64,000 bases of DNA. Origin: Heptranchias perlo. Lineage: Eukaryota. Position numbers and translations under genes: made by a program. The stretch's first letter is position 1; the number at the start of each line of letters is the position of its first letter. The notes under the pieces are model-generated. The model was not told the DNA's origin and did not search any database. It worked only from the letters and a program-made list of their open reading frames with translations. Positions 27,595-30,525 of the stretch are shown here, one piece after another. The stretch lies in NCBI RefSeq assembly GCF_035084215.1, contig NC_090364.1:8370001-8434000 (forward strand), read 5' to 3'.

Positions 27595-30525
27595 TTAACT
27601 TTTCTCCTCTAGAGACAGCTTGTCAAACAGATACTCCCCCATCCCATTCTCAGGAGCTCCCAGACGGTTCAGGTTGGTGATGTAGTCCCCAAGTTGCTTG
27701 ATGGCCTTGACCTGCTCATCCAAGTAGTGAGTCTCCAGAAAGTCACACAGCTGGAATAGAAGGGAAAATATAACCACATGTGCAGTATAACCTTCTAATT
27801 TAATAAAGGAGGGGTTAGACCAGAATTCAGCCAATTCTCTGTTCACACTACCACTGCAGCCACTTTCAGAATGAAGCTTGTGATCTGCTACATAAAATAA
27901 GCTAGCAGAATTATTGGAACAGGAGGAGGCCATTCTGCACCTCGAACCTGTTCTGCCATTCAATTAGATCATGGCTGATCTGTACCTTCACTCCTATCTG
28001 TCCACCTTGGATCCATAACCCTTAATACTCTTGCCTAACAAAAATCAATTTCAGTTTTGAAAATTTTCAATTGACCCCTAGCCTCAGCTATTGGGGGGTG
28101 GAAGTTTCAGATTTCCACTAGCCTTTGCGTGAAGTGCTTCCTGGCATCACCCCTGAATCGCCGAGCTCTAATTTTATCATGCCCCCTTTGTTCTGGACTC
28201 CCCCACCGGAGGAAATGGTTTCTCTAGCTACCCCATCAGATCCCAGAAGGGTGGGATCATGTGGAGCATAAACACCAGCATGGACCTTTTGGGCCAAATG
28301 GCCTGTTTCTGTGCTGTACATTTTATGTATGATCATCTTAATTAGTTGACCCCTTAATCCCCTATACTCAAGGGAACACAAGCCAAATTTGGAAGTTAGA
28401 AGAAACAGATTAAAAAAGGAAAGTGTGGGCCTCAGCACCGATCACCCAATGATTCCACACCTGACCAATTGGCTTGTCAATTTGACTCAGTATTGCTCAT
28501 CTGCAGGCAGGTATGTGGATCCACTCAACACAGTGTTCAGTTCTGTTGAGTCCCAAGACTCAGACACAAACAGATTCACATTCAGCTACTTGTGGTTAGT
28601 GAGGTACTAATGCTTTCACTTTTACAAATCCAGGCTAATGACAGTGAAACAAAGCTCACATGTGGGTCAGTCTGGGTGGTGGCAAGTTGGTGTAGATCCA
28701 GTAGACTCTGGTTCACATTCTTCTCCAGCTCCAGGGCGACCTGCATTGCCTGCAGGCCATCGCTCCACTCATCCCTCTCCGGTTTCTAAAGAGGGAAAGA
28801 AATACAAGTGAAGTGTCCAAGGTTCAGACATGCTCGTTTTATGTCCACAATTCAGAACAACTAGCACACAGTTTCCAACTATTTGTACTTCCAGATAGAA
28901 CAGAGGTCTCAGTTTTCAATCTGACCCCACATTCTTCTTTAAAATTAACAATTTAATGCCCCCCACACCAATATAAAAGCAGCCATTTTGTACAGGGCCA
29001 TTTCCCAATTCCAACCTTCACATCCTGTAGGAGGATGCGGCCTCCACGCTGATTCTGGAATTTCATCAGCTTCTCGGCACACTCCCGCTTCTCGTGGGAC
29101 TGATGTTTGAAGAACCTGGAGAAGTTGTCAAGAGCAACATCATCCCGGTCAAAGTACGACATCTGAAAAGAATAATCCAAATCCTATTAACATGTCGACC
29201 CCAGCCTTCAATGTTAGAAGCAAGTCTAATTAAACTGAATAGTCAATATGAAGTTAAATTCTTTCCTGACCGCCCTCAGGTCTAGGCCAAAAGGGATACA
29301 CAATATCAAGTCAAGTTACAGATTGTTGTTCTGTCATCTGCCACTCCCTTCAAGTGCTTTGTAACAAAACTCTTCCCAATTTCAAAATTAACCATTGTAG
29401 CTGAATCAGCAGAAGTGACAATCCAACTTTTCTGGTTGGCCGCCAATCCACTGCAAATATTTCATAGGGAAGGACCAGGAAGGTGTATAGATACAAAATG
29501 AAGTAAAAGAGGAAAAAAAAAATGTATCTAACTGTAGTGAGTCAAATTAGTAGCAATAGAATAGAAAGAATGGATTTAGATTGTCAGTATAAGTCTTCCT
29601 AGTCTGGTTACCATGATCCAGGGGTAGAATCAATTGTGTAAATTTATTCAGAACTATCACAGAGCCTCCATTCAGCTCATGTGCCCATCTGAAGTACATT
29701 CTGTTTTGGTATAAAGTTCATACTCTGTACATCAGAGTTAGAAGCAACAAATTGACCCATTATCTATTCCAATGCTCTCCTGGCCAGCCTCCCACTTCAT
29801 ACCCTCTAAACCTAAGCACATCCCAAACTCTATTATCCATATCCTAACTCACACCAAAGCCCCATTCACCACTATGCTCACTGACCTATATTAGCTCCCA
29901 ATCTAGCAACACCTTGATTTTAAAATTCTCATCCTGGTTTTCAAATCCCTCCATGTTCTTGCCCCTCCCTATCACTAACCTCCTCCAGCACTACAATCCT
30001 TCAAGATCTCTGCACTTCTCCAATTCTGGCCCATTACACATCCCCAAATTTTAATTGCTCCACCCTTGGCAGCTATGCCTTCAGCTGCCTAGGCCCTAAG
30101 CTCTGGAATTCCCTCCCTCCTCCTTTAAGGCACTCCTTAAAGCCTACCTGTTTGAGCAAACTTTTGGTCACCTGTCCTAATATCTCATGATGCACCTTGG
30201 GACATTTTACTACATTAAAATACATTGTATAAATGCATGTAGTTATTAATTGTTGTGGCACCAGCCAGTTATAAGGAGAGTTCAAATTGAATGATCTAGT
30301 AGGTCTATTACAGAAAAAAAATCCCATAAAAGTTGAAACAAGCTGAAGTTAACTTCAAGCAATGGGGAAAATGGACAAGATACTACAGCTCATTTTAAAA
30401 GAGCCAAAGAGTATAAAACCCACCACAGAAAGATAAAGATAGGAGGCACAGAGCTCCATGTTGATCTGTTTGTTGACAGCAGCCTCACAATCCTGGTGGT
30501 AGTTCTGACATATCTGGGACATCAT
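27595..30525 (-). CDS. Ferritin subunit, copy A, 176 aa; complement(join(27595..27750,28660..28785,29016..29162,30424..30525))
   Basis: Canonical vertebrate 4-exon ferritin layout (102/147/126/156 nt, all phase 0, GT-AG). Translation: [176 protein letters not shown]. Confidence 0.95.
27905..28385 (-). mobile_element. CR1 3' fragment in ferritin A intron 3, with a short + strand CR1 tail nested at about 28240-28330
   Basis: Reverse complement of the 11413-11795 family; absent from the equivalent intron of copy B. Confidence 0.8.
29780..30255 (+). mobile_element. L2-like 3' fragment in ferritin A intron 1
   Basis: Homologous to 7550-7942 (gccttcagctgcctaggccctaagctctggaattccctccct). Confidence 0.82.

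Follow-up and report, generated by a model that had tools for sequence, protein, structure and literature searches.

A transcribed ferritin with an incomplete ferroxidase centre in the shark Heptranchias perlo belongs to a lysine-62 subfamily and is predicted to be non-catalytic

The window analysed here, a 64,000-nucleotide stretch of the Heptranchias perlo genome, contains a four-exon ferritin gene on the minus strand (gene A) that is transcribed and belongs to a conserved shark subfamily in which residue 62 is fixed as lysine (K62). On balance, its product is predicted to be a non-catalytic co-subunit of the active ferritin chains, likely co-assembling with them and likely separate in origin from the mammalian L chain. 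Residue numbers are anchored on the 183-residue H chains of the PDB.

Gene A encodes a protein of 176 amino acids with no internal stops, and all its introns are of the GT..AG type with all exon phases 0. The exons, each seen in the sequence and in RNA contigs, comprise the coding part of exon 1 (30424..30525), with E27 and Y34; exon 2 (29016..29162), with H57, H60, E61, K62, E64 and C65; exon 3 (28660..28785), with E107; and the coding part of exon 4 (27595..27750), with D131, E134, E140, Q141 and the stop codon. Lysine 62 is encoded by AAG (29088..29090) and is found subfamily-wide, and Cys65, encoded by TGT (29079..29081; CGT for Arg in the paralogous gene B), occurs only in Heptranchias. 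A TATA box (TATAAA, 30620..30625) is located 100 nt 5' of the ATG, an exact RNA contig starts at 30604 and covers the 5' UTR over 30526..30604, and a poly(A) signal (AATAAA) is present at 27464..27469, all on the minus strand. The product is identical at 176/176 positions to XP_067830297.1 ("ferritin heavy chain-like", Heptranchias perlo, P0123).

Transcription of gene A is evidenced by a contig of run X1 that joins positions 30604-30424, 29162-29016 and 28785-28686 with 0 differences, skipping both introns. A second contig of this run covers 27750-27491, comprising exon 4 and the 3' UTR, also with 0 differences. The joints seen for the exact gene A copy are those of exons 1-2 and 2-3, the exon 3-4 joint being absent from those shown. 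Runs X1-X3 represent one sample of one study, carrying no tissue label, and their RNA nature is shown by the spliced joints. Since both K62 and C65 are read in the exact RNA contig, they are not assembly errors, and an error at codons 62 and 65 was thus ruled out. Contig depth over the exons was about 100-fold higher in X2 than in X1 and X3, a figure that sums paralogues and is a poor measure of expression. The intact ferritin with K62 and C65 described in the first-pass annotation is thus borne out by the sequence, the RefSeq identity and the exact spliced contig, and the retained E27, Y34, E107 and Q141, the two histidines at positions 57 and 60, the splice sites, the TATA box and the poly(A) signal are likewise confirmed in the sequence.

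The ferroxidase centre of gene A is incomplete, with K62 and C65 beside the conserved E27, Y34, E107 and Q141. Both position 57 and position 60 are occupied by His, and the E57/E60 pair of L-type chains is absent. In the accessible text of the sources, E62K/H65G is the standard ferroxidase-null form of the H chain (PMC4029007), and E62K by itself is described in a review as enough to abolish ferroxidase activity and as the lesion of FTHL17 (PMC7760355). The null double mutant and the sufficiency of E62K together predict the loss of catalysis in gene A, and the loss of activity proposed earlier is a sound prediction.

The cavity carboxylates E61, E64 and E140 are present in gene A, as are the three-fold channel residues D131/E134. 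According to the available part of one report, E61/E64 make up the site for nucleation in human mitochondrial ferritin, in which H57 is dispensable and H57A has little effect, and human L nucleation uses E60/E61/E64 (PMC12022971). Since gene A keeps E61 and E64, along with E140, and H57 is dispensable in mitochondrial ferritin, the earlier statement that this subunit is not a typical nucleator was overstated. The ferritin fold, a four-helix bundle with a short C-terminal helix, appears intact in an alignment-based model (pLDDT 88; TM 0.94 and rmsd 1.3 to human H), used instead of a single-sequence fold that reached only pLDDT 44, and the domain PF00210 was found on all close homologues of gene A among the matches listed. 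Residue 22 of gene A is Lys, the H-class and single-copy-class rows checked having Arg; Arg at this position is needed for NCOA4 binding in ferritinophagy.

Related records were gathered via an exon 2 query and a close-paralogue query (the best 120 of 232 and of 2964) and via cluster look-ups (up to 15 members per cluster), and 135 cartilaginous-fish ferritin records were assigned to classes by best alignment score. Gene A groups with 73 of these, and all 73 carry K62, a count that includes isoforms and near-identical paralogues, so that the records are not independent. The remaining 62 records have E62 in 58 cases, K in 1 and N in 3. The subfamily is represented in ten genera (Heptranchias, Heterodontus, Scyliorhinus, Mustelus, Stegostoma, Rhincodon, Chiloscyllium, Hemiscyllium, Cetorhinus and Carcharodon), which span five orders. 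The 7 ray, 4 chimaera and 14 sawshark records, an incomplete sampling of these groups, yielded no member. The E62 array class of sharks shows sporadic loss of E62 (K in 1 and N in 3 of 46; P0032, P0203, P0208 and P0177).

Position 65 is His in 67 of the 73 subfamily records; the exceptions are three records with Cys, all from Heptranchias, two with Arg and one with Tyr. The presence of K62 in all members and of C65 in Heptranchias alone indicates that K62 is an old shared lesion and C65 a late local change; the codons CGT in gene B and TGT in gene A fit a path from His via Arg to Cys. Of the combined lesion suggested in the first-pass annotation, K62 therefore stands as a trait of the lineage and C65 does not. 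Other functional positions are well conserved: D131 and E134 are present in 71/71 records, E107 in 70/70, E140 in 69/70, E61 in 67/73 and E64 in 70/73. Q141E characterizes the carpet-shark copies, with E141 in 45/70 subfamily records (e.g., P0012 and P0022). These copies are strongly amplified, forming 90%-identity clusters of 43, 45 and 76 members.

Between Heptranchias and Heterodontus the K62 class is 0.898 identical, and the two E62 classes 0.895 and 0.898. Towards carpet sharks, matched-species identity falls to 0.835 for the K62 class vs 0.875 and 0.903 for the two active classes, with overall ranges of 0.835-0.847 vs 0.875-0.915, and the subfamily has thus diverged faster than the active classes in carpet sharks. 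Among 59 distinct full-length members (tree length 1.79), K62 is one of 70 invariant columns out of 176. The subfamily protein is constrained; a site of mean rate, however, stays unchanged on this tree with probability 0.17, so that the invariance of K62 alone is not significant as evidence of selection for lysine. E27, Y34 and, mostly, H65 are also conserved; they are not obviously needed by a long-dead site, and this counts against the non-catalytic reading.

A tandem K62 paralogue, gene B (35835..38657, minus strand; exons 38657-38562, 37034-36888, 36508-36383 and 35978-35835), served as a control. It has an open frame of 170 codons, with a two-codon deletion in exon 1 and a GAG acceptor at exon 2, and carries G27, Q61, K62 and R65. 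Its dN/dS relative to gene A is 0.57. Of the 40 post-duplication changes that were polarised, 37 occurred in gene B and 3 in gene A (p 2e-8), and a further 2 were ambiguous. Gene B is thus decaying, and gene A has changed little since the duplication. Exon 4 and the 3' UTR of gene B match contigs of X1 and X2 exactly, which shows transcription of gene B or of a nearly identical copy. No contig covers exon 1 or the greater part of exon 2, which carries no weight either way. A LINE-like fragment lies just upstream of gene B exon 2. Private decay of gene A, with E62/H65 in its relatives and a silent copy, had been considered in the earlier work; instead K62 is shared by shark orthologues and gene A is transcribed. 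Private pseudogenisation is ruled out by transcription, by K62 in 73/73 records and by the few changes on gene A.

The locus is marked by a conserved neighbour, TMEM150B, with exons at 13386-13457, 16131-16265, 18721-18945 and 20195-20377 and weaker partial matches at 5344-5469 and 10368-10487, all on the plus strand. A K62 gene adjoins TMEM150B in Heptranchias, Heterodontus, Mustelus, Carcharodon and Scyliorhinus torazame, as deduced indirectly from near-consecutive RefSeq numbers on scaffolds of the same length. Two E62 ferritin classes are located on the same Heptranchias scaffold as gene A. Skate fth1a and skate TMEM150B are on scaffolds of different length, and the chimaera "lower subunit-like" ferritin (P0309, P0453) is on a scaffold as long as that of chimaera TMEM150B. 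The first-pass annotation had passed over gene B, the setting within an array and the precedent of FTHL17.

The origin of the subfamily was analyzed with an 80-row quick tree and with an LG+G4 tree built on 46 of these rows, from which columns 27, 61, 62, 65, 107 and 141 were removed. The K62 subfamily forms a clade in both, with SH-aLRT 99 in the former (19 subfamily rows) and 95.8/100 in the latter (10 subfamily rows). It is sister to the shark E62 array in the quick tree (support 86) and occupies the base of the 46-row tree. Gene A shares 74-75% identity with H chains and 53-57% with L-type chains, and falls outside the FTH1 clade in both trees, although grouping with FTH1 is not formally rejected (p-AU 0.09); the H-like backbone noted earlier thus holds for identity, while the best trees place the gene elsewhere. 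In AU tests with fuller searches 0 of 6 constraints were rejected, p-AU being 0.63 for grouping with the E62 array, 0.31 for tetrapod L, 0.22 for the marsupial K62 rows, 0.22 for the single-copy shark class, 0.11 for mammal L alone and 0.09 for FTH1. An apparent rejection of the mammalian L grouping (p 0.016), obtained with fast-searched constraints, was discarded, the fuller searches giving the 0.11 above. The tetrapod L rows, which are only divergent L-like records of seal, owl monkey and lizard, sit inside E62-bearing M-type rows in both trees. This position favours separate origins, and the K62 subfamily likely arose independently of tetrapod L. The independent L-like origin considered in the first-pass annotation is thus favoured by the trees, tempered by the p-AU of the tetrapod L grouping.

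Gene A shares with mammalian FTL (horse L, PDB 6pxm: K62, G65, E141) K62, a non-His residue 65, E107 and the carboxylates E61/E64/E140 on the cavity face, and the carpet-shark copies additionally share E141. It differs from FTL in having E27 (Tyr in L), C65 (Gly in L) and Q141 (Glu in L), in the absence of E57/E60, in its identity of only 53-57%, in the lack of a detected iron-responsive element (IRE) and in its location in a tandem multigene array. The complete ferroxidase centre of FTH1 H chains is missing owing to K62 and C65, and here too no IRE was found in gene A. Like gene A, which falls outside FTH1 in the best trees, the teleost and amphibian M chain is described in the accessible text of PMC4117605 as non-FTH1, four-exon, multicopy and of similar length; its ferroxidase centre is complete and it has both acidic nucleation residues and an IRE, whereas gene A has K62, C65, H57 and H60.

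FTHL17 is likewise an H-like chain with E62K and most of the centre residues kept, its loss of ferroxidase activity being shown and that of gene A predicted. FTHL17 is X-linked, intronless and derived from FTH1, while gene A consists of four spliced exons beside TMEM150B; FTHL17 is multicopy in mouse and germ-line expressed, germ-line expression of gene A being a cluster-level hint only. By its residues and gene structure, gene A does not fit the H, M or FTHL17 types. The marsupial "FTHL17/heavy chain A-like" ferritins (P0282, P0441) also have a broken centre with K62, and the fish and chimaera "lower subunit" ferritins (P0302, P0309) have a centre broken differently, with K27/Q65/Q107/S141 or, in chimaera, A65/Q107/C141. 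Both form separate branches from gene A in the two trees and are 49-61% identical to it. A broken centre thus appears as a recurrent theme in sharks, marsupials and the lower subunits of fish and chimaera. The marsupial records with K62 annotated as "FTHL17" or "heavy chain A-like" (P0282, P0440-P0449) group with amphibian M-type rows and not with FTH1, and are possibly another separate E62K lineage that has been misnamed.

For gene A, no IRE was detected by Rfam at the gathering score or at E up to 10, and its 5' UTR contains no CAGWG loop and has a folding z of -0.24; these results cover the 5' UTR as seen, a further upstream exon being conceivable. Salmon H and M genes carry an IRE, according to the part of the report available (PMC4117605). 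Run X2 contains spliced joints of the K62 subfamily together with those of a paralogue that differs in spelling. The junction spelling of this paralogue is also seen in other sharks, in proteins of the E62 array, a weak hint that K62 and E62 copies are expressed together. The accessible portion of a Greenland shark preprint (10.1101/2024.09.09.611499) reports 155 "FTL" and 179 "FTH1" copies in that species and an ovary-specific ferritin cluster, and mentions neither active-site residues nor a K62 subfamily. Gene A would lie within this known shark ferritin array, and may belong to the same cluster as the ovary-expressed one of Greenland shark. This preprint was the only related work found, and no description of the shark K62 subfamily was found in the literature covered, which excluded subscription papers and preprint supplements.

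The following mechanism is proposed for the predicted co-subunit. K62 replaces the carboxylate that bridges the two irons, so the di-iron site could not form; K62 would presumably pair with the invariant E107 in a salt bridge of the kind known from L-chain structures. In a mixed 24-mer with E62-bearing array paralogues, the gene A subunit would still pass Fe2+ inward while supplying nucleation sites and diluting catalytic ones, which may favour a stable, high-load iron store. With no IRE found, transcription and copy number would determine its output, probably in the ovary. Once K62 had disabled the site, replacement of His65 by Arg and Cys would have been tolerated in Heptranchias. A broader scenario, which we put forward only tentatively, is that a light chain arose in sharks themselves 250 million years ago or earlier, through the E62K change also seen in mammals, that it was co-amplified with active subunits in an IRE-free, ovary-biased array building the iron stores of the egg, and that carpet sharks then repeated Q141E.

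Gene A could instead act like mammalian FTHL17, as a germ-line ferritin that lacks ferroxidase activity and serves to hold or deliver Fe2+, or to regulate in the nucleus, rather than as a storage co-subunit, a reading we regard as unlikely. As in gene A, E62K in FTHL17 occurs in an H-like backbone that otherwise retains most of the centre (PMC7760355, accessible text), mouse FTHL17C is reported to raise nuclear Fe2+ and to bind TET1 (PMC13149808, accessible text), the shark ferritin cluster is ovary-expressed and gene A has no detected IRE, and the E27, Y34, H65 and E107 present in most copies mean that a single metal site could persist. Against this, the carboxylates of the channel and cavity show the conservation seen in storage cages. 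The four exons of gene A also contrast with the intronless, FTH1-derived FTHL17. Drift might also have fixed K62 in a redundant member of an array that evolves by birth and death, the passenger subunits of the subfamily being constrained only against poisoning the cage. E62K is a single transition, the E62 array class loses E62 as well, gene B is decaying alongside, and the invariance of K62 is by itself not significant; nevertheless, the retention of the subfamily beside TMEM150B in five species, its presence in ten genera, its amplification in carpet sharks and the few changes of gene A after duplication make drift rather improbable. Useful ferroxidase activity despite K62 would accord with the kept E27, Y34, E107 and Q141 and with H65 in most relatives, but is very improbable given the E62K/H65G null control, the reported sufficiency of E62K and the additional loss of H65 in gene A.

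A different history with the same function would apply if gene A were truly orthologous to tetrapod FTL and its K62 went back to the ancestor of jawed vertebrates. The p-AU of 0.31 for the lizard and mammal L-like grouping (0.11 for the mammal rows alone), the occurrence of K62 also in lizard L, mammal L-like and marsupial M-like rows, and the orthology of teleost M to tetrapod L reported in the accessible text of PMC4117605 are in line with such descent. The best trees, however, never unite the subfamily with tetrapod L, a constraint that costs 10.4 log-likelihood units compared with 1.8 for grouping with the shark E62 array. The nesting of tetrapod L rows among E62-bearing M-type rows, the low identity to L-type chains and the absence of K62 members from the incompletely sampled ray, chimaera and sawshark records likewise make this orthology improbable.

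Arguments on why vertebrates have a dead ferritin subunit, and on the number of its origins, usually draw on mammalian L only. With the same E62K change fixed and about 74% identity to active chains, the shark subfamily would allow a direct test of the early steps and, if the broader scenario above is true, K62, K62 with E141, and K62 with C65 or R65 would form a living graded series from catalytic to structural ferritin. Many shark proteins annotated as ferritin heavy or middle chains are predicted to be non-catalytic, perhaps including copies counted in arguments on shark longevity or ferroptosis. The lesion itself is already known from the L chain and FTHL17, and the gain is a new natural case rather than a new kind of system.

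Other features of the window include a CpG-rich non-LTR retrotransposon remnant with RVT_1 and zf-RVT domains (31224-33400, plus strand), located in the interval that separates gene A from gene B, a short way upstream of the promoter of gene A, and a near-perfect inverted repeat (27215-27374; 69-nt arms, 22 nt spacer) about 90 nt past the gene A poly(A) signal, possibly a small transposon or a local duplication. A Pfam scan of 148 of the 405 non-repeat ORFs of the window, with exons shorter than about 62 aa outside the scan, revealed only TMEM150B and LINE domains. Regions 54626-54990, 57500-59700 and 62300-64000 contain, in this order, an N gap, frames that resemble a Harbinger-type transposon, to which the Pfam scan gave no hit, and a simple tandem repeat of considerable length that occupies the end of the window. 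Three ferritin records filed under Aeromonas veronii or Salmonella, P0010 (NJI29780), P0487 (MCY5961997) and P0490 (MBS2599572), group with ferritins of rays or sharks. One matches a white shark protein without differences and two are on contigs shorter than 1 kb, and these records are likely mislabelled.
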